The notes below the pieces were generated by a model, which saw only the letters and a list, made by a program, of their open reading frames with translations, was not told the DNA's origin and did not search any database. Position numbers and translations under genes: made by a program. A DNA stretch of 64,000 nt from Schmidtea polychroa (taxonomy: Eukaryota): positions 10,170,001 through 10,234,000 of the forward strand of contig CM097885.1 of assembly GCA_044892525.1 (NCBI GenBank), given 5' to 3'. The stretch's first letter is position 1. Each line of letters begins with the position of its first letter. This document shows, piece after piece, positions 22,244 through 55,584 of the stretch.

Positions 22244-24020
<1,777 letters not shown>

Positions 24021-24253: not shown

Positions 24254-24673
24254 TTAAAATAACTGTGAAAGTCTAGCAGACATAATTTTCCAAATTGGTG
24301 AATACACATCATTATTATCAACTTTATATCCTTGGATTGCAATTGTTATATACCAATTTTCGTTTTCTTTGAAGCTGATTTCATCAAAGGAATCATAAAA
24401 TCTTGCATATCGGTTGTTGAAAAATGCATGTTGATTACAAGATAGATTCGTATTCTACCGTTTAAAAATATCATCAATAGTTTTAACATCTATCATTGAA
24501 AGCGTGCCGGATAAAAATTGAAATTAGGTAGGAATTAGCTTGATCGGTGACACCAATTTCATATTGATTTCTTCTTTTAAAAAATACATTTTATAGCTGT
24601 GGAACATTTGAACAGGTTGTACAAGTTCTGCAACAACTTTTGGTTTTTCAGTGCTTGAAATTTTCTTTGTCAT
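24254..24673 (-). pseudogene. Homolog of the 139-aa ORF (7422-7841) with a premature TAG
   Basis: Same length (420 nt); CGG TAG where A has CGG TTG. Confidence 0.8.
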
Positions 24674-24793
24674 CGTGAATTATGATTAAAATGAAATGTT
24701 ACAGGGTTTTTATACCTTTGACTCATGCATATCAACCAATCAGATTATAGCATGTCTTTGTTTTAATTGCATTGATATTGTAATGATAAATAA

Positions 24794-25258
24794 TTAATTA
24801 AGTGATAATAAAAAATCTAAAAATTCATTTCCTTCAATTATTGATTTAATTTCAGATATGATATTATCAACTATACATTTGTAATCAATATTTTTTATTC
24901 CAAGAATTACTATCTTACCGCTAGCGAATATATTAACACACATAGGGTTATATTTTATATATCTCAAAGCTGGAAATAATTCTGGTTCGTAAAAACATGG
25001 TATTAATTTATCCAATTTATTTAAATTGCAAGAAAAACCTATATCGGAAGTTACGGTTATCGATTGTATTTCTAAATCATAAACATTATATTCACTAGCT
25101 TTGATTATTTCCTTACACCCCATAATTCTACATTTACCAGTTTTGAAATATATTATTGGATATTTTTTACTTCTATTGATGAGTTGTTGTGGTTTCCCCA
25201 TTGGAAATACCATTTTTGATACATCAGCTTTTGCCCTGTAATTTATATTTGAAAGCAT
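24794..25258 (-). CDS. TATA-binding-protein-like protein, 154 aa, intact
   Basis: Two TBP repeats: SNINYRA...IIYFKTGKCRIMGCK and EIQSITVTSDIGF...YEPELFPALRY...VNIFASGKIVILGIK. Confidence 0.9.
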   Translation of the reverse strand: MLSNINYRAKADVSKMVFPMGKPQQLINRSKKYPIIYFKTGKCRIMGCKEIIKASEYNVYDLEIQSITVTSDIGFSCNLNKLDKLIPCFYEPELFPALRYIKYNPMCVNIFASGKIVILGIKNIDYKCIVDNIISEIKSIIEGNEFLDFLLSLN

Positions 25259-25364
25259 TTTAATAAAATAATTATAAAAACTCAGATATATATATAGTTA
25301 TTTTAAAACGGAGTTCATTTAAATTATCAATATAAACAATAATTATTTAGTTTAAATTTAAAAA

Positions 25365-26495: not shown

Positions 26496-26498
26496 ACA

Positions 26499-26681
26499 AT
26501 GGGTGCTAATCCTTCATTACCAGACATTAAATTTAATATCAAATCTTCTTGCTGTAATGGAGAAGATTTGGACGAACCCGGAAGACGAAGCCGGTTTTGG
26601 TGGAGTGGCAAAATTAAGGAAAAGAGTTCCGAATTCGAAAAAGGAAACCCAGAAGTGGTTATCAGATCAGCTTGCGTATAG
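26499..26681 (+). CDS. Small putative myristoylated protein overlapping the integrase
   Basis: MGANPSLPDIKFNIKSSCC; homolog of 10385-10612. Confidence 0.6.
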   Translation: MGANPSLPDIKFNIKSSCCNGEDLDEPGRRSRFWWSGKIKEKSSEFEKGNPEVVIRSACV

Positions 26682-26959
26682 TTTGAACAAACCAATGCAG
26701 AAACGATTTCCAACAAGAGCCTATAAAACATTTGGTATTGACGATTTATGGCAAATGGATTTGATGGAGATGATACCCTATTCGAAAATTAACAATGGGT
26801 ATAAATATATTTTAACATGTATTGATGTATACAGCAGGTTTGCACGAGGAATACCCGTCAAGGCAAAATCTGCAGAAGAAATGTGCAAAGCTGTTAATCA
26901 TTTATTTAAAGATGGACATCCTAATAACTTGCAAACTGATTTAGGTATTAATAATATTA

Positions 26960-27020
<61 letters not shown>

Positions 27021-27650
27021 TTAGGTAAAGAATTCTACAACAGTAAAGTCAAGCAAATCCTCAATAAATTGAAAATAAACCATTACTCGGTACATTCTCA
27101 ATACAAAGTTGCTCATGTTGAAAGATTTAACAGAACATTGAGAGATAGATTAAAGAAATTATTCGTGCATCAAGGTAATAAAAAATGGGTATTGGTTTTA
27201 CCAAAAATAATAACAAGTTATAATCATTCATCACATCGAGGACTTAATGGATTGAGACCAGTTGATATTACATCAAAAACATTCTATTCTAAAAAACCTG
27301 TAAAAATTACAAAACCGAAATATAAAGTAGGTGGCCATGTTAGAATTAGTAAAATTAGTGCATCACCATTTATTAAAAATTTTGATACAAATTGGAGTGA
27401 TGAAGTCTTTGTAATTTCAAAAATAAATACTAGTCAGAATCCTGTAATGTATGTCATCAGTGATTATGATAACAATATTGTACAAGGAAAGTTTTATGAG
27501 CAAGAATTACAAGTTATTCCTCCCCCAAAAGTATTTAGAATTCAGAAGATATTGAAAACTAAAAAGGTTGGCAAGGATAAACAATACTATGTCAAATGGC
27601 ATGGTTATCAAAACCCATCATGGATATCAGAAAAGGATCTAGTAAAGTGA
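26557..27650 (+). CDS. rve integrase with C-terminal chromodomain, apparently intact; intron 26945-27024
   Basis: DDE residues in WQMDL, QTDLG|KEF, VERFNRT; chromodomain YYVKWHGY...SWI; the 80-nt GT-AG intron must be removed to restore frame. Confidence 0.93.
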
Positions 27651-28667
27651 ATTTTTATACTATTTTACCAAGCAATAGTTGCCCGCCTATTAATTCATCC
27701 GGACAATCAAGCCAGTAAATTCATGGTCAATCTCCAGAATCCGATTTCTTTAAATGGTGACTTGGAAGTTGCAATGCAAGATTTTACATTCGTGTACAAT
27801 ACATTCTCATTTTATAGTCAATGTAAGATTGATTTCAAAAGGAATGCTATGAAAACATGTAGTGGTATCTTTATTATCAGTAATTATGATAAAACATATC
27901 ATATTCCGAATCAAATATTAGATCCGCATTGCTCTATGTTTTACAAGGATGGATTAAATATCAGTTGTGATTTTAAACCATTTACAATAACATTCGAATA
28001 TATTGAAGATGCCAGACGAATGGGCTGCAATAAGTTGAAAAATGAAGTTATGGAAACAGAATATTTATTACGCTTTGATCTATTTGAAGCAAACAGTGTA
28101 ATGAGATAAGAAATCAAAATATCAGTGTCGTATAATAATGAAGTTGAAGAATCATTCACATTCGCTGACGAATTATATATTGATAAACTTGATGTGTTAC
28201 TTAAATATTTAAAGTACAATTGTTCACACATATTTAAAAGTTTGGACATTGTGAAAGATTTATTGTTTACTTTCAGTTTGAATGATGACATTTGCGAAGT
28301 TACATTTGATAAAAATTTGACAAATACACTTGGATTAGAGAAGCAGCAATATCGGGAAAAATCTGCTGGTATACGTAAACCAAGAATACTTGAACATCAT
28401 CAACAAATGTTCATATATACTAATATTATTGAGCCTATAATAGTTGGTGATTCCAGTGTTCCTCTATTGAAATCGGTATGGATTGGAAAATATGAACATG
28501 ATGAAGTTGTCAATATAAATATAGATAATCCTATGTATTTACCAATTTCAAGCTCATGTATAAACAATATAGAAATAAATATTCGTGACGATAGTGGAAA
28601 ACTTATAAACTTCCCAAAAGACTCAAAAACTCATTTGACACTACATTTTCGTAAAGTAGATGGCTAA
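27647..28667 (+). pseudogene. Minor capsid protein, frameshift and internal stop
   Basis: FYTILPSNS...; 4-nt insertion at ~27672 and TAA at 28107. Confidence 0.88.
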
Positions 28668-29028
28668 TTCCGATATTATTAGTATGTATAGTGATAGCCA
28701 ATCTGGCGGTGAATTACCATATTTTATTGGTAAACAGTACGGATCAGGTTGGTTAAAAGCAATAGGGAGATTTGCACTTCCTATTCTTAAACGTATTGGT
28801 AGTTTTGGTATGAAAACTGCTAAAGATGTGATTATGAATGAACAGAAAATATTACCATCCCTAAAAACAAATGCTTTAGCTGAATTAGGTAAGGTTCTAC
28901 CTGGAGTTGCTGGTATGTTTCAAAAAGATGAGCCCCCAGTCCCAGATCACGCTCCAAAACGTAAAGGACATTAAATATCACGTATAAACAAACGAATGAA
29001 AGGACATGGAACTATATTTGCAAAATGA
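28660..29028 (+). CDS. Small virion protein with amphipathic helix (adenovirus pVI-like); probable premature stop at 28972
   Basis: QSGG...KQYGSGWLKAIGRFALPILKRIG; the frame continues past the stop to ...GTIFAK TGA overlapping the MCP ATG. Confidence 0.65.
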
Positions 29029-30217
29029 TTTGTGGTAAATCCGAATTATGTATATTTGATAGATCATCGCCCCAGGCTGTAATAGAATTTGGGGCATTTG
29101 AAGAAGTTTTTCCTATGAATTCAATTACTGATAGTAGAAATGATATCGAGTTTTATATTAATGGTTCGCAAACTGAATATTTAGATTTGAACGATACTTT
29201 ATTGACTGTTCAGATCAAAGTTGTAGATAAAGATAGAAAGGTTTTGGATGCCAATGCGGATGTATTACCAAAAAATTTCATGTTTCATACTCTGTTTAAA
29301 AATGCAGTGTTGGGATTTAATAATATCAAGATTGAGGGCGGAAATAATACATTCATTCACAAGGCTTTGATAGAAACTATTTTAAATTACAATTCCGATA
29401 CTAAAAGTACCTGTCTTACACCTATGGGTTATGCAGCAGCAGATGATGAAAGAAAAAAGTGGGTTAAAGGTTCAAAAGTATTCACTATGTGCTCATCATT
29501 AAAACTTGATTTTATGGATCAACCAAAATATTTACTACCGGGAGTTAATATACATATTAGATTGAAAAGGTCCGATTCTGCATATGTCAATTAGTTGATG
29601 CAAAATTATTGGTGAGAAGAGTTCGAGTAGACCCGTCAGTATTAGCCGGTCATCAATTGGGTCTTAATTCAAAACATGCAATTTATCCTTTAAAAACAAA
29701 GGAAATTGTACAATTTGCTATTGCTAAAGGTGCTTCATCATTCTATAAAGAACAAATATTTGGTGACAGAAGAATGCCTAATTTTATTCTGGTAACATTT
29801 CAAAGTGAAACGCAATATAATGGATCTTATACTGCTTCCAGCTCAATTTTCAAAAATTTTGGTGTTACTTCATTGACTTTGTCGAAAAATACTGATTATA
29901 GAGAAACATATACTCAAGATTTCGAAAGCGATAATTACTGTGCGACATATATGCAGAGTATTGTTAGAAATCTGGGTTACTTAGATAAAAATTTGAATTG
30001 TGGAATTACTCTAGAAGAATTTAAAAGCAAATATCCATTTTTCACATTTGTTTTAGCTCCCGATTTTGATTTAAATCAGAGTCAACTACCACAAAACGGG
30101 AATTTACGACTGGATATTAAGTTTGCAAAGGCCATTACAGAACCGGTACATGTTATAATATATGGAGTATTTGAAAATGAAGTTCAAATTACTGCAAATA
30201 GAACCGTGCTAGTATAA
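29025..30217 (+). pseudogene. Major capsid protein, frameshifted by a 28-nt deletion at ~29583
   Basis: Full N-terminus (KSELCIF...IEFYINGSQTEYLDLNDT); deletion seen relative to A. Confidence 0.92.
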
Positions 30218-30244
30218 ATGTATACAGAAACACAAAAAGTTGTC

Positions 30245-30629
30245 ATGGAGTAAGTTTTTTGATAATGTTTAATTTTATTAAAGTAGTTCTGTTCAGGTTA
30301 ATCGAATTGGAAAACAAATATTAGGAAATGAATTTGTAGGAGTTTTTCCTCTCGATGAAATTCCTTATTTGAGCAATAATCAAGCCATAATTGTCAATAC
30401 TCATTCGTCTCATCTTGGTGGAGAACATTGGATAGCTATATATGTGAAACCTAGTAATATATTCGTATTCGATCCTATGGGTTTCTATTATCCTGCTTTG
30501 TTGATATCAAAACTTCAAACAATTGGGAAACCAATTGTATATAATAAAACTATATTTCAAAATCCATTGACTCAAACATGTGGTCAACACTGTTTGGCAT
30601 GGTTGTTGTATAAAAAATTTGATGGTTAA
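30245..30629 (+). CDS. Adenain-like cysteine protease, complete; 37-nt intron 30250-30286
   Basis: MD|SVQVNRIG...GEHW...FDPMG...FQNPLTQTCGQHC (His, Asp, Gln and Cys present). Confidence 0.9.
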
Positions 30630-30808
30630 TAAATGTATACTGTATGATTTTTATTTGTTGACTATTTTAATTATTTGTTAAATATTATTATTTTATGTTT
30701 AATCATGAAAATGATGAAAATCATGTAATTGACCTAGAAATTAAGTTTTATGAATATTTAAGTAAATAATAATAATGAAACTTCTAAAATAATAATTAGA
30801 AATTTGCA

Positions 30809-32585
30809 ATTAAATATAGACTGGGTAGCAGAGAGTGAAGATTCGGGATTTGATGAAACAGATGAAGAAAACGCTCAAGATGATGAGGAAAGCATTCAAG
30901 AAATTGATGAACCTATGGAGGAATTTACGGATACTGAACCGTGTGTATATAGGGATTGTATAGATCATGTTGTTGAAAATGTTATCAACTGTGGAGATGA
31001 TGAATGTGAATGTGTTAATAAATTTTAGTGTATATTTAAAGTACAATATTTAAAATTTCTTTGTTAAAGTTTTATCTTGAATATTTTTACCAGTAACTTT
31101 GTAAACAGTACCCTGTGACTTGTTGAGTGTGACCAGTACCCATGTGACTTGTTGAGTGTGAGAGTACCCTTGCTAGCAATACCCTTAGGGGGACAGAATA
31201 TCTTGTCGGATAGACTAGGAGTATATAGATTAATAATAATAATAATAATAATAGTAATAATAATAATAATAATAAAACTTAGAAAATAAAAACTTAGAAA
31301 ATAATAATAATTTTTTAAAATAATAATATGACCTTGAAAAAATAAATGACCTTGAAAATAAAAAATGAACTTGAAAAAATAAATGACCTTGAAAAAATAA
31401 ATGACCTTGAAAAAAAAATAAATATTTTGAACAATTATATGACCTTGAAAATGATTTTTGGTAAAATGTTAATAACTTTGTCAATATTAATGATGATGAT
31501 ACCTTCTATCGTTCAATCGAAAGGTCTTGGATCGAGCTTTAAAATGAGCTATCGTTGAATAATTTTTGTTGGCGGAAACTCTGTAAATTTAAATTTTAAA
31601 ATATGACCTTGAAAAAATAAATGACCTTGAAAAAATGAATGACCTTGAAAAAATAAATGACCTTGAAAAAAATAAATGACCTTGAAAAAATAATATTTTG
31701 AAAAATAATAATAAAATGATCAAATGACCTTGAAAATGGTCTCGGGAAAACTTTAATAACTTTGTCCATATTAATGATGATGATACCTTCTATGGCTCAT
31801 TCGATAGGGCTTGCACTAAGCTTCAAAATAAGCTATCGAGTAATAAATTTGGATAATGAAAACGATAACTTTTGGGCAAACGAAAACCATGAGCCCTCCA
31901 GAACACTAATAATATTTTGAATAATTACATGACCTTGAAAATGATTTTTGGTAAAATGTTAATAACTTTGTCAATATTAATTATGATGATACCTTCTATC
32001 GCTCAATCGAAAGGTCTTGGATCGAGCTTTAAAATGAGCTATCGTTTAATAAATTCGGATAATTGGAACGATAACATTTGGGCAAACGAAAACCATGAGC
32101 CCGCCAGAACACTTAATAATATTTTTGAAAAATAATAATAATATTTTAAAAAATAATAATATGACCTTAATGATTCATTCTAATGAGTCATATGACCTTG
32201 GGAATGACCTTGGATGAGTCACGCGACCTTGAAATGACCTTGAAACGACCTGGATGAGTCATGGTCTTTGTTTAAATGGCCTTGATGAGTCATATGTCTT
32301 TCTTTAAAATTTGACCTTGAAAAATAATATTTTGAAAAAATAATAATATCTTTACCAATAATAATGATAATAAAGATGTCTATACCTCATTTGAAAGGTC
32401 TTGTAGTGGCTTCAAAATAAGTCATCGAGCAATAAATTCCATTGGCGGGAACTCTGTAAATTTAAATTTGGCCTTGAAAAAAAAATGACCTTGACCTTTT
32501 ATTTTTAAAAGAAAAATTTTCCCGGGGGAGGGGGGTATATGTGTCGTGGAGGGCTCATGTTCTGGAGGGCTCACTACCATCTACT
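30809..32585 (-). repeat. Right TIR of B
   Basis: Inverted copy of 22244-24020, including the acidic ORF fragment 30804-31028. Confidence 0.9.
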
Positions 32586-34171: not shown

Positions 34172-35895
34172 TTTACTGGAAGCTATTGTTAGAATACCTT
34201 CACCATTTGAACCTATTTCAACATTTTCCTGTTTCCTTAGTTTTTGTACAAGTTGTAAAAATTAAAAGTTATAAAATTTACAAGAAATAAAAAAATTACA
34301 AGATATAAAATTTATGATTTGTAAAATTCTTATTTTTGAAGTAGTAGAATAAAGGCTAAACAAATTTCATTCCCAACAGAGTGACATCCGAGTAATTGAG
34401 CGACCGACAGGGAGTTCGTTTATGCAGGATGGAAGGATGTTGAAGGGCTGGGTATTATCAATATACATAAAGAGAGTTAAGGCCTGCTTTTAGTAGTTTC
34501 CTGTGTGTAAGCCAGATGCAAATTTGTCACCACAAAAATAAAAATGCCATAATTTTTAAGTTGATGCATATACTGGTATTAAGATTAAAAGATCAAAATA
34601 TGTTAGAGAATTTTAGCTTCAAGAATATCTGAACAACTGAACAACATTATTATCAATTATTATTTATAACTTTTTAAAGTTTGATAAAATTTTTGAATTG
34701 GGAAAAAAATTTTTGGGACTTTTTAAAATTTGGGGAAATTTTGAGTTGGGAAATTTATTTTGGGAATTTTCTGAGTCGGGAATATCTTGTAAAAATCTTT
34801 TATATTTACTATACCTGTGATTTTTTATGTAGTCATGTTATCAAAAGTAGTAGATGATATATAAGATATATATAAGATATACAAGACATATTTTTCTAAA
34901 TATTTTTATTGATTTTTTCTAAGTGACCTACATGATTTTCAAAAAAATTTCCAAATATTTTTTATATAAAAAATTTATTTCTATAATAGAGTGACCTTCA
35001 TATTTAAGTAATTTAATTAAGTACTTTAATTTAAGTACCTACATATTTAAAAAAGCATCCTAAGTATTTTATTAAAAATTTTGTTCATTGTCCTATCATT
35101 TGTTGAAGAACATGAATTTAACAGTAGTGAATAGTAAGGACTCCAACTCACTTTCAAGGTCATGGAATATCAAGATCAAATATAGACCAATCGAATCATT
35201 TATTTTTTAAATTAACATTTTATTTAATTACTTCTTTTTAATTTTATTAATTAATTATTTTATGATGTTATATTTTAATTACTTACTTTAGTTAATTTTT
35301 AATTTATTACATTTAATTAATTTATTAGTTTATTAATATTTTATTTTAATTACTTACGCTTTTTAATTATTATTATTATTATTATTATTTTTAATTTTAT
35401 TTAATTACTTCTATTTTTTTTTTCTCTTTAATTTTATTAGTTAATTATTTTATGATGTTATACTTTAATTACTTATTTTAGTTAATTTTTAATTTATTAC
35501 ATTTAATTAATTAATTTGTTTATTAATACTTTATTTTAATTGCCAACGTTATTTAATTATTATTTATTTATTTTTTAATTTTACATTATATTCTAACAAG
35601 AGCGTAAATTATAACAATAATATTTCAATTTGAATAAAATTTTAATTAGTAATTATTCAATTTGAATAAAATTTTAATTGGTAATTATCATAAAATAAAG
35701 CTGTGTTAATTTAAATAAAATGGGCATTAATTTTTCAAAACAAAGCAAAGTTTTTCATGATAAATAATAATTCTTACTTAAAACTAATTATCTAAATTAA
35801 TTGGACAAATGAATTATTAAATGATAAAACATATTTTAATTAACGAAGTCAAATAATTCACAATATATATTTTATTATTCACATAAATTTAATTG

Positions 35896-38788
35896 TTAAA
35901 GTTCTTGTTTCGATTTGCATTCATTTGTAGACGGAGCAGTTGCGATATGCATTTGACGAATCTTATAGTGACCGTAGGCATAGCTTTCATTAGAATTGAA
36001 CCAATACCTTTTTTCATCCAAACATTGGAGAGCTCGTTTTTCAGTAATGAAAGTATACAACTGATGATTAACACTTCCTATTCTCTTTTGTTGGATGCTC
36101 ACTGTTCCACCATCAGTATACACTTTTTTATAGGCTTCATGGGTGATATTAGAATTTGTAAGACTTATTCCTTTGGCTTTTAGAGTGTTTTTATCTCCTT
36201 GGAGTGAGTAGCACTTGGGTCGAAGAAACACCCATTCTTTATATTGATTTCCTTTATTCTCATCCTTGAATTTCCCGATTACCGAACAAATTTTATCTGA
36301 GAACAATGGATCAGTCACCGGATAATTTGAAGTATCTAGGAGCCCATCGGCAATCATTTTTGGATACAGTTGTAAGCGTAAATCAACATTTTTACACTCT
36401 AAAAAGAAGGAATCTGTGTCACCGGCTACGATATTAATTTGACAATTGAATTCTTCTCTATAACTCTGTAGTTCTTTATATTGAAACTGGTACATGCGAA
36501 GTTTAGATAAATCAAGTACGGTTTGTCCAATATACATTGGTCTATCTAAACACACCATTTCCTTATCAAGTATAACAGCAATGAGATCATCCGCAATCTT
36601 GATGCTACGACGAAACATAGGATTACTACAATAAGTTATCAATCTTTTGCTTTTGCTGCATAATCTCAAATTTATACGTTTCTTAAGGTTTTCCACGGTT
36701 TTACCATATAAACTGTTGTTCTTTAACTTATAATAATCTCGCTGAAATGAATCTGTACTAGCTGCTCTCATTTGAGTATTGTAATCAATATAGCGTTTGA
36801 AAATAGCTACTTGCTTGAATTCTACAGCACGATTAACTTTTGTGACTTTTGCGCCGTAACTCAACCACTCTGTCAAAACTCTACCATTAACTACATAGTT
36901 TTTCTTAGGCTCATGAGTTAACAACAGCTTTTCAACTTTACTACCAGGTGGATAACAAAGCTCAGGAGCTATAGGTAAATCATCTAGCTTATCTTGTATA
37001 CTATCAGGAATGACGATGTCAACCTCTAGAACATATCCACGATCTCCATCAAACTCATCCCCATTTGCACATCTTTCAACAATACCATTCATTTCAGTAT
37101 GATCATTTATCCATCTAAATTCACCAATAGGAAGTTTTTGCGACAGCGCCCATCCATATAAATTATTAACATCTAGGTATGACATTTGTGTTGATTCATC
37201 AGCTTCAACATGATGTTTGTTGATAAATGTCATTCCACCACGAATACCAGCTTCAAATAAACGGTAAAGCTCTGGATCTTGAATAAGTTCTACCGGTTCA
37301 GGTAACTGTTTAATAGCTGATGCCCAACTTAATCCGGGTATGGAAACAAACGATAAAGCCTCAAGTCCATCTTCGTCAAATGTTTTTTCTCTGAAAGCTT
37401 CAAAAACATCGGCCAACACAAAAACATCCAACTTGAGATATACTAGCATGTAATCTAGCAGTGTCTCACAGTTATATTGTCGCCAGATTTGATTTGCATG
37501 TATATAATCTTCTTGACTAACTCCCTCCCAAATCGATGGTAATTCTGTTATTGACTGTAAAACATCCATTGACGTAGCAATATCATAAGGAAATATGCCT
37601 TTACCAGTTATTAGATGCGAATTGAAAATCTTTGAAGTAAGTGGAAGACGTGGCAAGTTTTTTGATAAATTTGCCAAGCTGCTATTTAAAAATTGTAAAG
37701 AATCAATGAATCTAATTCTTCTGCCTTTCGATGTCGCTGTAAGTGTGAGAAACTTTTCTGTTGATTGAGGAATAACAATTAAATTCCAATCTGGGAATTT
37801 TCCAATTGCATATTTTAATATATGATGAATGTCATATCCACGAAGATTATGAAATACAACAGGTAAAGACGGATTGATTCTTCTAGCCAAATTACAATCT
37901 TGACACGCTGCTCCGAGATATTGACCAGTAAAATGATCATGATCTCGAACGGGTATATTGATAATCTTTTTACAAAGGTAGCAATGAGTTTGAGTCGTGA
38001 ATTCTTCCTGCTCTTCCCAAGTGAGTTCCATCATTTCCTTTGATCCATTAATTTTATACCACGGATAAACTATGTCTGTAGCTATATCATCCAATGCTTG
38101 TATGAACTGAATGATACAGTTTTTCCCAACAAATGTTTCATTTCGGATCGGACAACCTTGATGGAGAAGCACAAATTCAGATGCAATCGGCTCATGTTTT
38201 TGGAAGTGTTTGTCATCTAGAGGTAATATCGATTCAAAGTCCGCGTAGACAACAAACTGCTGTTTTATAGTTTTACTCCAATCTTTAAATTCGATATATT
38301 TATTCTCTGGCATTGAGTATAGAGTCGTACGCTCCACATTCTTCCTACAAAGACCTATATGTCTTTCAAAAGCAGGACGTTTTTGAAACCCATGAAGACA
38401 CGTATGACACCAATGTGATTGGATTCTGACTCCTTCTACTCTATCTCTGTAATTCAGCAGTCGATCGAGATTAGTTACAGCCAAAAAATGATAATTTAAT
38501 TCTAAATTTAGTTAATATTTTTAATGATTAAAGGAAATATTACCTTCTTCAATCAATAGGAGATATATCTGAGATCCCGTCGAAGTACTTCTATATACCA
38601 AGTCAATGAACGGATTCTTGAAAATATCATTAGTTTTTTGTTTAATTGGATCTTTATTATATTTGAGAACATTGATCGCTAGATTTGGATTAATTGCTTC
38701 AAATTGGCAAATGTTAACCAACTTCATCGGAAACCATTCAAATTTCCATTTTAAGTCTTAAAAACAAAATTCAATGATTTATGACATT

Positions 38789-38851
<63 letters not shown>

Positions 38852-39923
38852 CCACTTAAGTTATATTTTGTTGTTCTTTCTCTATTCCGACGTATATCAT
38901 CATAACGTAACACAGCTAGTATGCTATATAAAAAACAGAATTGATCATTGTTTTGAACATTAACTAAAGCCTGACAGTTTTTCAGGTAATTTGGCGTTTT
39001 AATGTAACTTGAACCTAAGTAATCTCTTGATTTATATATATATAATAATGTAAATAATCTTACCAGATACATGTATTATGTCTGATAATTTAGTTAAAAT
39101 CATAGTAACTTCTAATATTTTATGAATTCTCCACCCACTACTTTGTTGAGTGTATTTCTCCAACTTTTCTTTTAATTTTTCAATTCCATCATTAATAAAT
39201 GAAGATGACATTGTAATTGCTTTATTCGACAAACACCATTTTTTAATTTCACCATCCTCTTTGATAAACTCTGCACAAAGTCCAAATTGGATTTTTACTG
39301 TCCCCATTCGTTGAATATGATCTTCTATTTCTTTGATGAGACAATCTGGAACAACAATGTCAGGAGAATTAATTGCAGATACATCGCTTGTCAATTCAAC
39401 ACGAGAACCGTTTAAGTCAGACTCCCGACGTGGACACAATTGTATGTTAGAGTCTCCATTTCCGTAAAATATTGACTTTCGTTTTGTGGTGCCAGAGTTT
39501 TGTCTAACTATATTTATAATTAATATTAAACAACTTAAATAACATAACTTGTAACATATTCTTTAATCTCATTAGGATCGTATGATGTATTCATTTTCGA
39601 TTGTACTATAAAAAATTAATAATTGTTAATAGTAGAAAGAGTATTACTTTTAGTGATCATCCTGCTCTTCGTTTCTTCGAATCTTCTAAGATGGTGTCCG
39701 TGTTGTCGTACAAACATTAACCACCTACCTGGTGTTATAATGAGACATTCCGGACATATGTAACCCGATAAGGTAGAGTCATTTATCTTGAAATATGATG
39801 ATGTAACTGATTTACAGTTCTCCACATCTTCATGACTTTCGGCAATACAAAATTTATATAAACTGCATCCGTTCACTAAAAAATAATCATTAATATTAGA
39901 TAGAGAATAAAAATTTATTCACT
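35896..39923 (-). CDS. Protein-primed PolB, left-arm copy, seven exons
   Basis: Inverted copy of 43797-47836; identical 862-aa last-exon ORF. Confidence 0.92.
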
Positions 39924-41090
39924 TATATAAGTTAAATTAAAAGTTTAAATGACAAACATTTGAAAAGTTACTGCTTATATATTACACATGATTAAATTCT
40001 GACCAATCAAAATCAAGGAAGGGGTAGGAAAAATAAATATATTCTGACCAATCAAAATCAAGGAAGGGGTAGGAAAAATAAATGCATTACATTGCAGTAT
40101 TTTAAAACTTAAATTTTAAAACACATTTTGACGCTAAAGTTGACTTATTTAACATTTTCATAATAATTTAATAAAAATAATGTGTTGAACTCACAAAGTA
40201 ATATCATTTTTTTTTCATCAAATTGCAAAACAGTAATAACGTTTTCATAAAATTGTAACAAAGTAATAACATATTTCAGATAAATTTTCAACAGTTGTAA
40301 AATATTTATCAAATTGTAACTAAAATAATAAAAATATTGCAACAAAGTAATAAAATAATGATGTTAATTGGGACAAATCAATACATTATTTCGAAGACGG
40401 ACAACAAATTAAAAAAGAATATTGTAATAAATTGTGAAGTCTTTCAGTAAATTACAACAAAGTAATAACATATTTCGGAAATATTTCACCAGATGTAAAA
40501 TATTTAAGCAAATTGTTATAAGATTATAAAAATATTGCAACAAAGTAATAAAATAATACAACATTTTAAACTCTAGATCAATCCATTTTATAGAAAATTA
40601 AATTTTATCTCTATAATATATGAATAAATATACAAGGAAATTACGTTAACGTATAATAAAACATGTGTGTATTACACACAAAACAAGATACATAATTTCT
40701 AATCAATCCATTTTATAGAAAATTAAATTTTATCTATATATTATATGAATAAAATCCTAAGAAAATTACGTTAACCGCGCGAAAAATACAAATTTATCGT
40801 AAAAACATGTGTGTATTACACACAACATACGAGACATAATTTTTAATCAAGCTATTTTATAGAAAATTAAATTTTATCTATATATTAAATGAATAAAAAT
40901 CCAAGAAAATTACGTTAACCGCGCGAAAAAATACAAATTTATTGTAAAAACATGTGTGCATTACACACAAAGCACCAAACTGAAATTGTAATTGCGCCGT
41001 GTTGTAGAGAATTAAATTCTGCCTATACATGGTTACACTTAAATCTCGATCAGACCTGTGAAAAGAGACATAAAAGATAAAAAACAGTAG

Positions 41091-41382
41091 AGTAGTATGA
41101 TGTGGGCCCGCCCGGCCAGGAGCCCGCTCGGCCACATATACACACTCCCCCCGTGTGTAAAATAATGTTAATAATAATATTTATATATCAGTAGATAGAT
41201 CTCGCACTGGGCCTTAAAATGAGCTATAGATCAATAAAATCCGTTGGCGGGAACATTAAGTTTTGAGCAAACGAAAACCAGGAGCCCGCCAGACCACTTA
41301 ATAATATTTTTTGAAAATAATAATGATTTATGAGTCATCGTATGAGTCATCGAATGAGTCATCGTTCTAAAAATACATGATG

Positions 41383-41442
<60 letters not shown>

Positions 41443-41646
41443 TTCTTGGGAGTTGTAATAATAATTCTTTGAAAATATCTTAGTCATTATTAATAATACT
41501 AATAATACCCTAGCGAGTTGTTGATTGTGAGTAGTACCCTTGTGTGCAGTACCCATGTGACTTGTTGAGTGTGAGCAGTACCTTTGTGAGCAATACCCAT
41601 AGGGGGACAGAATATCTTGTCGGATAAACTCGGAGTATATAATAAT

Positions 41647-41694
<48 letters not shown>

Positions 41695-42629
41695 CAACGA
41701 TTTAAACAAATTAAATTAATATGTAATCGATAATTAAAACAAAGATTATTAGTTCTAAAATTATTAGGCATCATTCTAAAAATATGACGTAATCATTCTA
41801 AAAATATGTGGCATCGTTCTAAAAATATGTGGCATCGTTCTAAAAATATGAGTCATCGTTCTAAAAATATTAGGCATCGTTCTAAAAATATGATGTAATC
41901 ATTCTAAAAATATTAGGCATCATTCTAAAAATAATAGACATCGTTCTAAAATTATGATGTAATCGTTCTAAAAATAATAGACATCGTTCTAAAAATATTT
42001 GGCATCATTCTAAAATATTAGAAAACATTCTAAAAATGTGATGAGTCATTGTCTTTGTTCTAAAAATGTGATGAGTCATCGTATGATAAAAATCTATATC
42101 TCATTAGAAAGTTCTTGCACAGAGCTTTAAAATAAGCTATCGATCAATATAATATGTTGGCGGGAACAATAATTTTTGGGATGAAAAAAAGTAGGTCCCC
42201 GCTGGATCACTTAATAATATTTTGAAAAATAATAATAATTTAACGTTGAAAAGATGGTGGTCATCAATTGTTAATAACATTAAAACTATTAAAGATATAT
42301 ATGATACCTATAGCTCATTCGAAAGGTCTTGGACTGAGCTTTAAGATGAGGTATCGGTTAATAAAATTTGTTGGCGGGAACATTACTTTTGGGAAGAAAA
42401 AAAGTAGGTCCCCGCTGGATCACTTAATTTAAAAAAAATTACGTAATAGTTCTAAAAATATTAGGCATCGTTCTAAAAATATTAGGCATTGATTACGTAA
42501 TAGTTCTAAAAATATTAGGCATCGTTCTAAAAAAAAAATAAAATTTTTTCCCGGGGGGGGGGGGGGGGGGGGGAGGGGGTATATGTGGCCGAGCGGGCTC
42601 CTGGCCGGGCGGGCCCACATCCTACTACT
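41091..42629. mobile_element. Non-coding mini-Maverick (1.54 kb) at the palindrome centre
   Basis: AGTAGT...ACTACT ends, ~60-bp TIR with GTGGGCCC...CACATATAC; internal blocks shared with B TIRs (GGGGACAGAATATCTTGTCGGATA, AAACGAAAACCA..AGCCCGCCAGA). Confidence 0.75.
41750..42085. repeat. Degenerate ~20-bp tandem repeat (CATCGTTCTAAAAATAT core); more copies at 42445-42530
   Basis: Direct reading. Confidence 0.85.
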
Positions 42630-42744
42630 CTACTGTTTTTTATCTTTTATGTCTCTTTTCACAGGTCTGATCGAGATTTAAGTGTAACCATGTATAGGCA
42701 GAATTTAATTCTCTACAACACGGCGCAATTACAATTTCAGTTTG

Positions 42745-43150
42745 GTGCTTTGTGTGTAATGCACACATGTTTTTACAATAAATTTGTATTTTTTCGCGCG
42801 GTTAACGTAATTTTCTTGGATTTTTATTCATTTAATATATAGATAAAATTTAATTTTCTATAAAATAGCTTGATTAAAAATTATGTCTCGTATGTTGTGT
42901 GTAATACACACATGTTTTTACGATAAATTTGTATTTTTCGCGCGGTTAACGTAATTTTCTTAGGATTTTATTCATATAATATATAGATAAAATTTAATTT
43001 TCTATAAAATGGATTGATTAGAAATTATGTATCTTGTTTTGTGTGTAATACACACATGTTTTATTATACGTTAACGTAATTTCCTTGTATATTTATTCAT
43101 ATATTATAGAGATAAAATTTAATTTTCTATAAAATGGATTGATCTAGAGT
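42745..43150. repeat. About three ~120-bp tandem repeats in the arm (mirrored at ~40570-40975)
   Basis: Repeated TGTGTGTAATACACACATGTTTT...GTTAACGTAATTT...AGATAAAATTTAATTTTCTATAAAAT. Confidence 0.85.
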
Positions 43151-43637
43151 TTAAAATGTTGTATTATTTTATTACTTTGTTGCAATATTTTTATAATCTT
43201 ATAACAATTTGCTTAAATATTTTACATCTGGTGAAATATTTCCGAAATATGTTATTACTTTGTTGTAATTTACTGAAAGACTTCACAATTTATTACAATA
43301 TTCTTTTTTAATTTGTTGTCCGTCTTCGAAATAATGTATTGATTTGTCCCAATTAACATCATTATTTTATTACTTTGTTGCAATATTTTTATTATTTTAG
43401 TTACAATTTGATAAATATTTTACAACTGTTGAAAATTTATCTGAAATATGTTATTACTTTGTTACAATTTTATGAAAACGTTATTACTGTTTTGCAATTT
43501 GATGAAAAAAAAATGATATTACTTTGTGAGTTCAACACATTATTTTTATTAAATTATTATGAAAATGTTAAATAAGTCAACTTTAGCGTCAAAATGTGTT
43601 TTAAAATTTAAGTTTTAAAATACTGCAATGTAATGCA

Positions 43638-43748
43638 TTTATTTTTCCTACCCCTTCCTTGATTTTGATTGGTCAGAATATATTTATTTTTCCTACCCCT
43701 TCCTTGATTTTGATTGGTCAGAATTTAATCATGTGTAATATATAAGCA
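43638..43748 (+). promoter_or_regulatory. pPolB promoter: duplicated ~43-bp unit with inverted CCAAT box, then TATA
   Basis: Two copies of CCTACCCCTTCCTTGATTTTGATTGGTCAGAAT followed by TATATAAG. Confidence 0.6.
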
Positions 43749-43796
43749 GTAACTTTTCAAATGTTTGTCATTTAAACTTTTAATTTAACTTATATA

Positions 43797-44868
43797 AGTG
43801 AATAAATTTTTATTCTCTATCTAATATTAATGATTATTTTTTAGTGAACGGATGCAGTTTATATAAATTTTGTATTGCCGAAAGTCATGAAGATGTGGAG
43901 AACTGTAAATCAGTTACATCATCATATTTCAAGATAAATGACTCTACCTTATCGGGTTACATATGTCCGGAATGTCTCATTATAACACCAGGTAGGTGGT
44001 TAATGTTTGTACGACAACACGGACACCATCTTAGAAGATTCGAAGAAACGAAGAGCAGGATGATCACTAAAAGTAATACTCTTTCTACTATTAACAATTA
44101 TTAATTTTTTATAGTACAATCGAAAATGAATACATCATACGATCCTAATGAGATTAAAGAATATGTTACAAGTTATGTTATTTAAGTTGTTTAATATTAA
44201 TTATAAATATAGTTAGACAAAACTCTGGCACCACAAAACGAAAGTCAATATTTTACGGAAATGGAGACTCTAACATACAATTGTGTCCACGTCGGGAGTC
44301 TGACTTAAACGGTTCTCGTGTTGAATTGACAAGCGATGTATCTGCAATTAATTCTCCTGACATTGTTGTTCCAGATTGTCTCATCAAAGAAATAGAAGAT
44401 CATATTCAACGAATGGGGACAGTAAAAATCCAATTTGGACTTTGTGCAGAGTTTATCAAAGAGGATGGTGAAATTAAAAAATGGTGTTTGTCGAATAAAG
44501 CAATTACAATGTCATCTTCATTTATTAATGATGGAATTGAAAAATTAAAAGAAAAGTTGGAGAAATACACTCAACAAAGTAGTGGGTGGAGAATTCATAA
44601 AATATTAGAAGTTACTATGATTTTAACTAAATTATCAGACATAATACATGTATCTGGTAAGATTATTTACATTATTATATATATATAAATCAAGAGATTA
44701 CTTAGGTTCAAGTTACATTAAAACGCCAAATTACCTGAAAAACTGTCAGGCTTTAGTTAATGTTCAAAACAATGATCAATTCTGTTTTTTATATAGCATA
44801 CTAGCTGTGTTACGTTATGATGATATACGTCGGAATAGAGAAAGAACAACAAAATATAACTTAAGTGG

Positions 44869-44943
<75 letters not shown>

Positions 44944-47836
44944 AATGTCATAAATCATTGAATTTTGTTTTTAAGACTTAAAATGGAAATTTGAATGGTT
45001 TCCGATGAAGTTGGTTAACATTTGCCAATTTGAAGCAATTAATCCAAATCTAGCGATCAATGTTCTCAAATATAATAAAGATCCAATTAAACAAAAAACT
45101 AATGATATTTTCAAGAATCCGTTCATTGACTTGGTATATAGAAGTACTTCGACGGGATCTCAGATATATCTCCTATTGATTGAAGAAGGTAATATTTCCT
45201 TTAATCATTAAAAATATTAACTAAATTTAGAATTAAATTATCATTTTTTGGCTGTAACTAATCTCGATCGACTGCTGAATTACAGAGATAGAGTAGAAGG
45301 AGTCAGAATCCAATCACATTGGTGTCATACGTGTCTTCATGGGTTTCAAAAACGTCCTGCTTTTGAAAGACATATAGGTCTTTGTAGGAAGAATGTGGAG
45401 CGTACGACTCTATACTCAATGCCAGAGAATAAATATATCGAATTTAAAGATTGGAGTAAAACTATAAAACAGCAGTTTGTTGTCTACGCGGACTTTGAAT
45501 CGATATTACCTCTAGATGACAAACACTTCCAAAAACATGAGCCGATTGCATCTGAATTTGTGCTTCTCCATCAAGGTTGTCCGATCCGAAATGAAACATT
45601 TGTTGGGAAAAACTGTATCATTCAGTTCATACAAGCATTGGATGATATAGCTACAGACATAGTTTATCCGTGGTATAAAATTAATGGATCAAAGGAAATG
45701 ATGGAACTCACTTGGGAAGAGCAGGAAGAATTCACGACTCAAACTCATTGCTACCTTTGTAAAAAGATTATCAATATACCCGTTCGAGATCATGATCATT
45801 TTACTGGTCAATATCTCGGAGCAGCGTGTCAAGATTGTAATTTGGCTAGAAGAATCAATCCGTCTTTACCTGTTGTATTTCATAATCTTCGTGGATATGA
45901 CATTCATCATATATTAAAATATGCAATTGGAAAATTCCCAGATTGGAATTTAATTGTTATTCCTCAATCAACAGAAAAGTTTCTCACACTTACAGCGACA
46001 TCGAAAGGCAGAAGAATTAGATTCATTGATTCTTTACAATTTTTAAATAGCAGCTTGGCAAATTTATCAAAAAACTTGCCACGTCTTCCACTTACTTCAA
46101 AGATTTTCAATTCGCATCTAATAACTGGTAAAGGCATATTTCCTTATGATATTGCTACGTCAATGGATGTTTTACAGTCAATAACAGAATTACCATCGAT
46201 TTGGGAGGGAGTTAGTCAAGAAGATTATATACATGCAAATCAAATCTGGCGACAATATAACTGTGAGACACTGCTAGATTACATGCTAGTATATCTCAAG
46301 TTGGATGTTTTTGTGTTGGCCGATGTTTTTGAAGCTTTCAGAGAAAAAACATTTGACGAAGATGGACTTGAGGCTTTATCGTTTGTTTCCATACCCGGAT
46401 TAAGTTGGGCATCAGCTATTAAACAGTTACCTGAACCGGTAGAACTTATTCAAGATCCAGAGCTTTACCGTTTATTTGAAGCTGGTATTCGTGGTGGAAT
46501 GACATTTATCAACAAACATCATGTTGAAGCTGATGAATCAACACAAATGTCATACCTAGATGTTAATAATTTATATGGATGGGCGCTGTCGCAAAAACTT
46601 CCTATTGGTGAATTTAGATGGATAAATGATCATACTGAAATGAATGGTATTGTTGAAAGATGTGCAAATGGGGATGAGTTTGATGGAGATCGTGGATATG
46701 TTCTAGAGGTTGACATCGTCATTCCTGATAGTATACAAGATAAGCTAGATGATTTACCTATAGCTCCTGAGCTTTGTTATCCACCTGGTAGTAAAGTTGA
46801 AAAGCTGTTGTTAACTCATGAGCCTAAGAAAAACTATGTAGTTAATGGTAGAGTTTTGACAGAGTGGTTGAGTTACGGCGCAAAAGTCACAAAAGTTAAT
46901 CGTGCTGTAGAATTCAAGCAAGTAGCTATTTTCAAACGCTATATTGATTACAATACTCAAATGAGAGCAGCTAGTACAGATTCATTTCAGCGAGATTATT
47001 ATAAGTTAAAGAACAACAGTTTATATGGTAAAACCGTGGAAAACCTTAAGAAACGTATAAATTTGAGATTATGCAGCAAAAGCAAAAGATTGATAACTTA
47101 TTGTAGTAATCCTATGTTTCGTCGTAGCATCAAGATTGCGGATGATCTCATTGCTGTTATACTTGATAAGGAAATGGTGTGTTTAGATAGACCAATGTAT
47201 ATTGGACAAACCGTACTTGATTTATCTAAACTTCGCATGTACCAGTTTCAATATAAAGAACTACAGAGTTATAGAGAAGAATTCAATTGTCAAATTAATA
47301 TCGTAGCCGGTGACACAGATTCCTTCTTTTTAGAGTGTAAAAATGTTGATTTACGCTTACAACTGTATCCAAAAATGATTGCCGATGGGCTCCTAGATAC
47401 TTCAAATTATCCGGTGACTGATCCATTGTTCTCAGATAAAATTTGTTCGGTAATCGGGAAATTCAAGGATGAGAATAAAGGAAATCAATATAAAGAATGG
47501 GTGTTTCTTCGACCCAAGTGCTACTCACTCCAAGGAGATAAAAACACTCTAAAAGCCAAAGGAATAAGTCTTACAAATTCTAATATCACCCATGAAGCCT
47601 ATAAAAAAGTGTATACTGATGGTGGAACAGTGAGCATCCAACAAAAGAGAATAGGAAGTGTTAATCATCAGTTGTATACTTTCATTACTGAAAAACGAGC
47701 TCTCCAATGTTTGGATGAAAAAAGGTATTGGTTCAATTCTAATGAAAGCTATGCCTACGGTCACTATAAGATTCGTCAAATGCATATCGCAACTGCTCCG
47801 TCTACAAATGAATGCAAATCGAAACAAGAACTTTAA
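43797..47836 (+). CDS. Protein-primed PolB, 1236 aa, seven exons (Cys/His N-terminus, terminal-protein/OTU-like region, exonuclease, polymerase)
   Basis: Exons 43797, 43845-44072, 44115-44171, 44213-44656, 44706-44867, 44976-45188, 45231-47836 sum to 3711 nt in one open frame; VYADFES, DHDHFTG, FHNLRGYD, YLDVNNLYG, KNNSLYGK, AGDTDS, KCY. Confidence 0.92.
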
Positions 47837-49194
47837 CAATTAAATTTATGTGAATAATAAAATATATATTGTGAATTATTTGACTTCGTTAATTAAAATA
47901 TGTTTTATCATTTAATAATTCATTTGTCCAATTAATTTAGATAATTAGTTTTAAGTAAGAATTATTATTTATCATGAAAAACTTTGCTTTGTTTTGAAAA
48001 ATTAATGCCCATTTTATTTAAATTAACACAGCTTTATTTTATGATAATTACCAATTAAAATTTTATTCAAATTGAATAATTACTAATTAAAATTTTATTC
48101 AAATTGAAATATTATTGTTATAATTTACGCTCTTGTTAGAATATAATGTAAAATTAAAAAATAAATAAATAATAATTAAATAACGTTGGCAATTAAAATA
48201 AAGTATTAATAAACAAATTAATTAATTAAATGTAATAAATTAAAAATTAACTAAAATAAGTAATTAAAGTATAACATCATAAAATAATTAACTAATAAAA
48301 TTAAAGAGAAAAAAAAATAGAAGTAATTAAATAAAATTAAAAATAATAATAATAATAATAATAATTAAAAAGCGTAAGTAATTAAAATAAAATATTAATA
48401 AACTAATAAATTAATTAAATGTAATAAATTAAAAATTAACTAAAGTAAGTAATTAAAATATAACATCATAAAATAATTAATTAATAAAATTAAAAAGAAG
48501 TAATTAAATAAAATGTTAATTTAAAAAATAAATGATTCGATTGGTCTATATTTGATCTTGATATTCCATGACCTTGAAAGTGAGTTGGAGTCCTTACTAT
48601 TCACTACTTTTAACACATGAAAGTTGTTATATTATGGCATTTGCTGCTGATGTTATTCACTGTCACGTCATGTGATGAAGTATACGATTTTAATCGTTTC
48701 AATTATTCCGTTTCACAATATTGATGCAAAGAATCACACTTGACCATAAAAATAAAAAATCATCTGACATTGGGTGCTGCACAGTAAGCTCCGCCAAAAG
48801 AGGTGAGGTTTCACATAGGTGGACTGCATTGTGCGCTAGCACAGCACTTGTCTCTGAAGCGAAGTGAACTCGGGTGGTCTCATTTAATGTTCATGAGTTT
48901 CCATTCTTTATAACTGAATCTTTTAAAAAATAAAGAAGTATTGAGAATCCATTTGACAAATTAACAGAAGTTAAATGCTAATATTGAAAAATTATTCGCG
49001 GCCACATAAAATAATTACGCAGCCCATATGTTGGCCATCCCTGTGGTAGGCCGTACGCGGAATAAAAAATGCTTTAAAAAATTAATGAATTTAATTGGGA
49101 GCTACTGTCCCATTTTTCTTACTCCAGAAATATTGACAAAAGAAAATTTTCTATAAACCTATAAACTATTAAAAAGAAAATAATTTATTATTTA

Positions 49195-53200: not shown

Positions 53201-55584
53201 AAACCTGACAGAGATACATGACTCAAATTATATTGGAGACATTTAATGCATCAATGATGTATGATGAAATTCAAGCAGTTCTTTCTTTGTACGCTTTAAG
53301 CCGTTCTTAGGGTATCGTTCTGGACTCCAGTAATCCTATATCACACACTATGGCAATTCATGAAAGTTATGTGTTACCTCATGCTATTTCTAACATGTTA
53401 ATTTAGCTGGAGGAGAATTCACTGTTTGGTAATCCTGGTTGCTGTCAATTTTTTTTAATTTTAAAGGTATTTGTTTATTTCGAATTTTGGCGCGTGTTTT
53501 AAAATAATATTTTCGAATAATCGATTTTAGAAATTAAGTAAAAATATCTATTGATTTTTAAAAAATTAATTAAATGAAATGGATTTATTTATTAATTGAA
53601 ATTATTGATTTAAAAATATAGAATTTTATTTTCAGTTAAATTAATATTTGATAAAAGCTTGTAAAATTTCGTTATATTAGATACTGTGATACATCTGGTT
53701 ATGGAGATGAGTTGTGTGTGTATGTGTTGTTTAAATAATTGACGCGCTATTTAAATTGGTAAAATCAACAAAAATAATTTGATTGTTATTGGTAATTAAC
53801 AAATAAATTAATTTTAATGATAATTATGTGTTGTTTAAATATTTCAGAATTTGGCGCGCGCATTTTTTAAATTTCAAATTTTATTATTATTGAACAAATT
53901 TTTGGATTTTGAAAAAAATCAAATTTCCAAAATTTCTGAATTTTTAGGTAATTATCGATTTTTGAAAATTTTGATTTTCTAGTTATATAATTGATAGTTT
54001 TCAAATTAATTTTGCCTCTCAGATACAGAATTAAAATCTCTACAAGAGATGTAAATTTTTGAAAAAAATCCAGATTTTCAAAATTCATTAAAAATATTTA
54101 ATATGAAAAAATAAAAAAATTAATTATTAAAAAAATTTAAATTAAAATATATTTTTAAAATTTTAAATTAATAAAAATGTATAAACAAAAAATAAAAATA
54201 TTCAATTTTATTTAAACATATAAAAAAGTAAAAATTAATGATAAAAAATTGTTAAAAAATTTAAATATATTTAAAAAAATAAAATATATACAAAAAATTC
54301 AATAAATAATACAATAAATTCTAAAATAATCAATTTTATTAAAAAATAAAGTAAAATTTAAAATTAAAAATAAATAAATAAAAATTTTATCTGAAAGCAA
54401 TAAAATTTTCAAAAATAAAAATATTAGAAAAAATAATTTAATTAAAAATAAAATAAATATTAAAAAGTAAATTTAAACAAATTTAAAAATAAATAAAAAT
54501 TCAAAAAAAAAGAATTAAAATATTATTTTTTTAAATCAATAAAAAATTTAAATTAAAAAAAATATATAAACAAAAAATCAATTTAATTAAAAAATATATA
54601 ACAAATTTAAAAATAAACAAATAAAAATTATAAAAATCAATAAAATTTTAAAAAATAAAAATCATTAAAAATAATTTAATTTAAAATAAAATAAATATTC
54701 AAAATTCAAAAAAATTTAATCAAAAACAACATTTTTTGAAAAATCAACAAATTTATATTTTAGAAATAATTAAATAGGAAATTTAATTTAATTTTGAAAT
54801 AAAAGGCTATGAAAATTATCAAATAAAATACAAAATCTTGAAATCAATAAATAATTAAATATTAATTAATATTATTGATTAACTGGAAAACAGGTAATTT
54901 GTACCTCGCATAAAGATTGGCAAAGAATTGAAAATCTCGAACGTTCTCTATCGCAAATACTAGCTTTCATTCGATATCCGATTTCCTCCTGAAATGTGAG
55001 AGTTAAAGGAACTCTGGCAACTTGCCACAATCCCCTTCGTTCTGATATATCATGCAGCCACTGGCCAAGTAAAATTGTTGAAATATTAAATGGAAGATTT
55101 CCGATAATGTGAGCTTTACGGTTTTTTGATTCAATGGCTCCGATATCTTTTGTATCCCAGGCTTGATCAGAATGAATTGTTTGTGATAAATCGGGAAATA
55201 TATTATCATAATTAAATTTTAAAATGTCCTATTAGGCGAATTTATTTAAGGATTTTCAATTTTATATTATACTTGATTATAAATATCCATTTTGGTATTG
55301 GCATCACCTGCAGCTAATTTAAGCTGTTCTAAGTTGTGTAAAAATCTATTATCAATTTCAACAACCGCAACATGATACGGATATTGTTCTAAAATCGACC
55401 TGGTGATTCCACCTGGACCAGGACCAACTTCAAGTACATATGAGTTCTTAAGATCGCCGGCAGATTTAATGAAATTTTTAATACAGTGTGGTTGAAGCAA
55501 GAAATTTTGAGATAATTGACCACAAGCTTTAATATTCAAAATACGAAGTAATTCGTGTAATGTTGCCAATGGAGGTAAATGTGA
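49619..55584 (-). CDS. TFB1M: Mitochondrial dimethyladenosine transferase 1 (KsgA/Dim1 family); first exon not located
   Basis: Exons 55273-55584 (LPPL...LSQNFLL...VLEVGPGPGGITRS...VVEID), 54905-55228 (IIGNLPFNIST...LTFQEE), 50042-50193 (IPGTAFLPK), 49883-49994 and 49619-49828 (LSMEDF...YDYDFR), all joined in frame by GT-AG introns. Confidence 0.93.
50930..52150 (+). mobile_element. Degenerate piggyBac-like transposase in the TFB1M intron
   Basis: ILRFIRFD; YVPGENIKIDEELFPTKARCRFTQYMPNKP; GRNVRTDNF; many stops. Confidence 0.8.
52330..53060 (+). mobile_element. Degenerate mariner (Mos1-like) transposase
   Basis: MEVNKE...FDKGENASQ; LRELGWKVLMQPPYSLDLAPSDYHLF (YSPDLAPSD motif). Confidence 0.88.
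53225..53425 (+). pseudogene. Actin gene fragment
   Basis: Decayed ETFN..., IQAVLSLYA, GIVLDS, HT..IHESYVLPHAI, LAGGEFT match the actin core with indels. Confidence 0.8.

Follow-up and report, generated by a model that had tools for sequence, protein, structure and literature searches.

Element C, the third of three Maverick/Polinton-type insertions (A, B and C) in the 64,000-nucleotide window of AT-rich eukaryotic DNA analysed here, is probably a copy-back Maverick with polymerase genes only, and its axis has probably retained the annealing site. It spans 35123-48608 (13,486 bp), forms a near-perfect palindrome with a pPolB gene on each arm, and fits the copy-back pattern, in which one end is duplicated around an internal inverted repeat and a spacer while the other genes are lost. 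Since C is bounded by transposon ends and a target-site duplication (TSD), it was either handled as a mobile unit or sits inside one. We consider it fairly likely that C is a defective Maverick made by copy-back, with fold-back at a 62-nt repeat and integration by a helper integrase, and we propose that the copying took place through replication of the element in a free linear form.

Organization of the three elements

An exact 6-bp TSD flanks each of A, B and C (5-8 x 10^-4 per position for the 6-mers of A and B), and the coordinates of the elements and of the parts of C are collected in Table 1. The outer tips of C, AGTAGT at 35123 and ACTACT ending at 48608, are termini of the (AGT)2//(ACT)2 type, and the mirror symmetry ends at these tips, beyond which lie the direct TSD and unrelated host DNA on each side. 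As assembled, the two arms show 0 substitutions in 5,968 bp and two simple-repeat indels. With the 62-nt tip repeat included, the total inverted repeat comes to 6,030 bp, and it surrounds a non-palindromic spacer of 1,415 nt that is closed by the 62-nt inverted repeat.

Table 1. Positions in the window of elements A and B and of the features of element C.
Feature	Position	Strand	Description
Element A	5118-21365		TSD GATATT; TBP-like gene, ATPase, integrase and pPolB pieces (Pfam)
Element B	22244-32585		TSD TATACT; body 88-93% identical to A; without pPolB
Left TSD copy of C	35117..35122	+	TTTAAC
Left arm of C	35123..41090	.	AGTAGT at the outer tip; AT-rich repeats; pPolB; non-coding region upstream of it, containing tandem repeats of 45 bp and 144 bp
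Left pPolB	35896..39920	-	transcribed direction away from the axis; 35896 is the end of the main exon; 5' end approximate only
Left inner flank	41085..41090	+	CAGTAG; holds the AGTAG pentamer; not a TSD
Inverted copy of central tip	41091..41152	+	62 nt; 59/62 match to 42568-42629; proposed fold-back annealing site
Linker	41153..41160	+	8 nt; first 7 nt are the reverse complement of 41139-41145
Left-truncated subterminal unit	41161..41375	+	~206-bp unit in right-TIR polarity; 12-bp repeats after it
B-like right-end module	41525..42629	+	conserved block, (ATA)n, 21-bp array, two ~206-bp units, G-run, tip ending ACTACT
Right arm of C	42630..48608	.	inverted copy of the left arm, second pPolB, outer ACTACT tip
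Right pPolB	45419-47836 (main ATG frame)	+	mirror copy
Right TSD copy of C	48609..48614	+	TTTAAC

In the left half of C, the long coding frames are pieces of pPolB only, according to the stop-to-stop ORF list. When the ORFs of A and B, the only probes, were compared with C by tblastn, none of the 12 that are not polymerase matched (0/12), and no integrase, packaging ATPase, protease or capsid gene was found with these 12 ORFs. Element C thus combines the termini, the TSD and the pPolB of a Maverick with a gene content that lacks the core genes and with an inverted repeat outside the TIR range of 46-1,447 bp given in PMC8097293, and because of its gene content and TIR length we regard it as a defective derivative and not as an autonomous Maverick.

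The pPolB of C matches Pfam PF03175 (E 3.7e-32) and aligns at 62% with full-length relatives, the tblastn alignment covering 39852-35956. Its N-terminal part is split by several small AT-rich candidate GT-AG introns (39922-38502 on the minus strand, mirrored on the right), and a (TA)n run in one of them is one of the two differences between the arms. In the left gene the running frame is stop-free across four segments, from 39562 to the stop codon; a candidate exon at 39605-39064 was dropped, having stops in all frames, and the exon structure above 39562 is approximate. The pPolB genes of A and C are only 50-59% identical, and blastn found no homology between the regions upstream of pPolB in A and C, or between the outer end of C and the other elements. 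The distance from tip to pPolB is 2.8 kb in C, when measured from the central tip, against 3.0 kb in A, and the C pPolB lineage may have had the central module as its native end, the outer tip being the newcomer. Relatives of the C pPolB with their context were not found among viral contigs; seven metagenome loci of 1.1-3.4 kb carry relatives at 52-59% identity, lengths that are too small for the layout to be read. The 144-bp and 45-bp tandem repeats upstream of pPolB (window 40533-41075 and 39996-40083) are very abundant in public contigs.

No pPolB was found in B within 22244-32585, and the terminal module of B differs from that of A. The TIR of B is 1,777 bp long, and two stretches of B, 23773-24020 and 30809-31056, both match A 6807-7127, which is single-copy left-end DNA in A. 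From these matches B looks like the product of an independent arm-copying event, on the other side than in C, and the comparison with A looks like arm copying together with an exchange of terminal modules between families. Mismatches within the TIRs amount to 23/550 and 5/354 in B and 10/213 in A, with 1/54 and 1/71 at their tips. In both elements a TBP-like ORF lies head-to-head with the ATPase (A 8750-9136, B 24794-25258; Pfam PF00352), B contains ~530 bp (28649-29180) that are absent from A at the matching place (A 12506-12508), and six ORFs of A and B received no name from PHROGs. Elsewhere in the window, a Tc5/DDE_1 transposase fragment and a RING-finger ORF lie at 16-543 and 921-2300, two ORF pieces on the minus strand at 54872-55584 may encode an rRNA adenine dimethyltransferase, and overlapping G+C-rich ORFs at 62635-63795, at the end of the window, possibly belong to another mobile element. 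Maverick expansions have been reported in Dugesia planarians (bioRxiv 10.64898/2025.12.11.693146).

The central unit and its tips

At the axis of C lies a unit of 1,539 bp (41091-42629) that starts with AGTAGT and ends with ACTACT. The sequence-only reading of this DNA had noted a 1.54-kb non-coding unit with such ends, and both points hold: the ends are present at 41091 and 42629, the longest ATG frame has 65 aa and is built of repeats, and there are 0 Rfam matches. The central tips form a terminal inverted repeat of 59/62 nt, aligned in register with the tips that TSDs verify in A and B, and both resemble the B tip (0/1,000 shuffles reach either score). That the flanks CAGTAG and CTACTG are reverse complements and not direct repeats was likewise confirmed, a 6-mer direct repeat being absent outside the tips; no self-complementary 6-mer flank was found there either, and the centre has no 6-bp TSD of its own. 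The flanks had been taken as a clue to how the palindrome formed; they are the inner ends of the 5,968-bp arms and are reverse complements because the arms are so over this whole length, and they therefore carry no separate information. A terminus 5 nt further out, also considered in that reading, is rejected, since a start at 41091 agrees with the first 19 nt of A at 14 positions and with those of B at 13, and a start at 41086 at 8 and 9. The pentamer AGTAG stands directly outside both central tips (41086-41090 and 42630-42634; chance about 6-8 x 10^-4), and it is the opening word of every Maverick tip in the window.

The interior of the unit is polar. The B-like subterminal layout ending GGGAAAA that had been noted is found at the right end only; the left end matches it for 62 nt (59/62) and then departs, and the subterminal modules are not mirrored at the two ends of 41091-42629. 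After removal of self-matches and of matches below 15% G+C, all 26 of the 26 listed blastn matches to the B TIRs have the polarity of the B right TIR, including those at 41159-41333 beside the left tip, and the motif counts on the plus and minus strands are 6/0 for TGAGTCA, 16/0 for TTCTAAAAAT and 0/3 for TTCCCGCC. The right 1.1 kb of the centre keeps the order of the B right TIR (block 91% identical, units 69-78%), with 41541-41690 at 91% to B 31128-31275 and 42093-42463 at 69% to B 31789-32158. The truncated unit at 41161 is 83% identical to B 22907-23079 in inverted orientation and 78% to 42086-42242 in direct orientation, and its other copies extend leftwards over more of the unit, with loose ends before 41161 in 25 contigs of sequencing run X18 and 2 of run X3. 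The linker in front of it (41153-41160) looks like a locally templated junction. Judged by its sequence, the centre consists of a single right-end module of B-like type and an inverted tip of 62 nt, and is not a symmetric mini-element; this polar build fits a one-ended remnant better than a free mini-element inserted by an integrase. The terminal modules at 22244-24020, 30809-32585 and 41091-42629 contain strand-polar arrays of TGAGTCA and TTCCCGCC, with CAAGGTCA in B only, and we take these three motifs to resemble AP-1, E2F and FTZ-F1-type sites.

A better clue than the flanks is the relative age of the tips and the arms. The 62-nt tip repeat carries 3 substitutions (41098, 41142 and 41144) against 0/5,968 in the arms (Fisher p 1e-6, with boundaries that were set after looking), so that the tip repeat probably predates the duplication of the arms, which is what fold-back priming would lead one to expect. 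The first mismatch falls at tip position 8, so that 7 paired nt remain at the 3' end, and on the simplest reading the copying started either within these 7 nt or at the very end of the tip, after the repeat had already diverged. The TIRs of A and B, which have spacers similar to that of C, are not homogenised. With DNA parameters, the central tips are predicted to pair as a duplex of -85.6 kcal/mol, and their pairing closes the minimum-energy fold of the whole 1,539-nt unit, so that by this calculation the tip repeat can anneal within one strand. The earlier proposal that an internal inverted repeat pairs and that the polymerase arm is then copied fits both the duplex energy and the contrast between 3/62 and 0/5,968.

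From public sequence data, four of the 21 listed sequencing runs (X18, X19, X1 and X3), all as Logan contigs, were compared with 38860-41380. The arm and the left part of the centre belong to very high-copy families, with a summed word depth of 0.3-2.5 million per bin in X18, a figure that is not a copy number. The letter of the window at 39571 accounts for 121 of 334,724 depth units in X18 and for none in X19, X1 or X3; this near-private letter, which both arms carry, indicates a rare C lineage. The remaining differences from the contigs look like subfamily markers. Depth rises upstream of pPolB in X18 and X19, which come from one study, and not in X1 or X3, and it dips over the GC-rich tip in X1, X19 and X3, which may be library bias; neither trend is drawn on here. 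Neither a loose end at 41090/41091 nor a bridging record was seen among the matches listed (24 of 980). Contigs that pass from a repeat tip into unique flank would overlap the tip by only ~30 nt, a value derived from the 31-letter words, and may have escaped this comparison. Record 16 of X18, with 13 other letters over 40977-41095, was rejected as a bridge, passing the junction by 5 nt only. The tip pattern had 0 matches in viral contigs and 0 in JGI metagenomes.

Fold-back copying and its alternatives

The fold-back that we favour would start from a precursor in which a block of outer tip, pPolB and promoter region was joined to a block of inverted tip, terminal module and tip, followed by the rest of the element. 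A displaced single plus strand with its 3' end at 42629, be it a real end, a cut or a trimmed flap, would fold onto 41091-41152, and extension of this 3' end across the left arm to the outer tip would yield a panhandle with two identical origins and drop everything to the right of 42629; second-strand synthesis and an integrase acting in trans would then lead to chromosomal insertion. That C has an outer TSD of its own, and that no integrase, ATPase or other gene of A and B was found in it, fits the copying proposed in the sequence-only reading, in which the structural genes are discarded. The same reading had also called for a free mini-element and a reciprocal, polymerase-less product; the latter is not obligatory in fold-back, and neither would be required. 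Were the other strand to fold back in this way, the result would be a mirror element that has this centre but no polymerase. Element B was considered as the reciprocal of C and rejected: it pairs with A (body 88-93%), whose pPolB is 50-59% identical to that of C. The missing TSD of the centre is expected after arm copying whether or not a TSD once existed, so that an earlier insertion is still compatible, and the central module could have been joined by integrase insertion, by deletion within a nested long-TIR element or by end-joining of two linear genomes, all of which would fit. The precursor, an empty site and a free central unit were not seen in the window or among the contig matches listed.

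The mirror image might also have arisen in the chromosome, from an integrated full-length element of the C family with a nested B-like piece, if host repair, after a template switch at the 62-nt repeat, overwrote the right part of the element with the left arm and rejoined it at its former right TIR, which would have kept the original TSD, or if one arm was later converted by the other. Fold-back by host repair at short inverted repeats is a general process, and the near-private change at 39571, which sits in both arms, suits chromosomal copying equally well; against a collapsed family contig (record 25 of X3), the C copy shows 13 differing letters and 6 gap positions over 1,121 nt, and a later conversion that faded beside the spacer would leave the same contrast of 3 versus 0. 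We nevertheless regard a rearrangement in place as unlikely, because no substitution is present even at the outer tips, where the old right TIR should differ, and because A and B, with similar spacers, were not homogenised (23/550 and 5/354 in B, 10/213 in A). Assembly polishing may account for exact arm identity, and both arm and centre belong to very high-copy families (30/30 bins covered in X18, X19 and X1, 29 in X3), which would suit an assembly or library artefact, either a fold-back chimera or a collapsed repeat. Such an artefact is improbable, since the mirror stops at the tips of C, with a direct TSD and differing host DNA beyond them, where a fold-back chimera would have mirrored the flank too, and since there are differences, in the length of two simple repeats between the arms and at three bases between the tips.

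Two further alternatives concern the origin of the centre. In one of them a full-size B-like element was nested in the precursor and its long TIRs paired, and an asymmetric deletion later removed the body and left only 62 nt of the left TIR, so that the centre would be a deletion scar that was never mobile; the copying step is shared with the fold-back reading and the history of the centre differs. The polar interior (26/26 listed matches), the truncation of the unit at 41161, which extends further to the left in its other copies, and the templated-looking linker at 41153-41160 are what a deletion would leave. The unit at 41161, however, is placed within the conserved block, an arrangement that the B TIR does not show, so that more than one simple deletion would be needed, and a deletion after integration would probably postdate divergence of the arms, yet the arms are identical; taken together, this history seems quite unlikely to us. 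In the other, a perfect palindrome already existed and an integrase placed the centre at its axis, creating a self-complementary TSD, or else the true end of the centre lies 5 nt further out. The additional AGTAG next to each tip on its outer side (chance about 6-8 x 10^-4) speaks for it, but none of the symmetric boundaries outside the tips has a self-complementary 5-8-mer flank, a direct 6-mer is not found across nearby boundaries, and the tip is placed at 41091 by its register with A and B, all of which makes an insertion at the axis very improbable. The fold-back reading, in which the 62-nt repeat predates the arms and the structural genes are lost in the act of copying, is the one that we carry forward.

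Relation to known systems

Palindromes guided by short inverted repeats are known from Tetrahymena rDNA, from Streptomyces linear plasmids and as fold-back inversions in yeast and tumours, and they share with C the layout of arm, short repeat, spacer, short repeat and arm; unlike them, C is bounded by transposon ends and a TSD. The architecture of C also works like panhandle-based restoration of ends and like adenovirus vector genomes, which were reportedly found by Steinwaerder, Carlson and Lieber in 1999 and by Carlson et al. in 2002 to be rearranged via internal inverted repeats; the product is said to have one end duplicated around a central unique segment, with the other genes lost, and Wang et al. 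in 1991 reportedly described panhandle repair of minichromosome ends. In adenovirus vectors, non-terminal inverted repeats cause replication-induced rearrangement (PMC2518115), and panhandles have been proposed as a route by which homology is restored in adenovirus and PRD1, with direct evidence still lacking in the account given there (PMC11886824). Element C resembles the rearranged vectors, as far as these sources describe them, in being a protein-primed linear replicon with an internal inverted repeat, a duplicated end and lost genes. The vectors, however, are engineered, episomal and without viral genes, whereas C is natural, integrated with a TSD and has kept its polymerase, and the annealing repeat of C is the tip of another element, unlike that of the vectors.

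A further likeness is to the copy-back or snap-back defective genomes of RNA viruses as outlined in the sources seen, in which one end is copied onto the other, complementary arms surround a loop and a helper is needed; C differs from these in being DNA, in its integration in the germ line, in its much longer arms and in the pre-existing inverted repeat. Among Mavericks themselves, the vertebrate elements surveyed by Barreat and Katzourakis (2021, PMC8097293) are 12.7-24.6 kb long, have TIRs of 46-1,447 bp and are intronless when intact. Element C is like the vertebrate elements of that survey in its (AGT)2//(ACT)2 ends, 6-bp TSD, TIRs and protein-primed PolB, and at 13.5 kb is within their range of length. 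It departs from the elements described in that article by its 6,030-bp inverted repeat, by a pPolB that lies inside this repeat and is present twice, and by the finding of no integrase, ATPase or other core gene, and also by the end of a second family at its axis and by a pPolB with candidate introns. No description of palindromic or copy-back Mavericks was found among the literature matches listed, subscription journals, Repbase reports and supplements being outside the search, and passages in PMC3185507, PMC13027316 and PMC6431247 contributed nothing to the mechanism.

The replication of Mavericks has so far been inferred from gene content, and panhandle intermediates are a model for which direct proof is lacking in the account of PMC11886824. 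If an integrated product has kept its annealing site, and this site is older than the arms, it would be genomic evidence, at one locus, that Mavericks restore or rebuild their ends by fold-back copying, and it leads to a rule that can be checked: in Maverick-rich genomes, the palindromic satellites should have at their axes an inverted repeat that is short and of greater age than the arms. More tentatively, nested Maverick tips may act as built-in hinges that make copy-back genomes, a polymerase-only palindrome such as C from one strand and a polymerase-less one from the other; this could possibly be a general route to the palindromic Polinton satellites of several animal genomes, with elements of the C type serving as replication helpers or as defective-interfering parasites. 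If this is true, such elements would supply their own polymerase in double dose and borrow integrase and capsid, and C would be a germ-line fossil of a panhandle intermediate.
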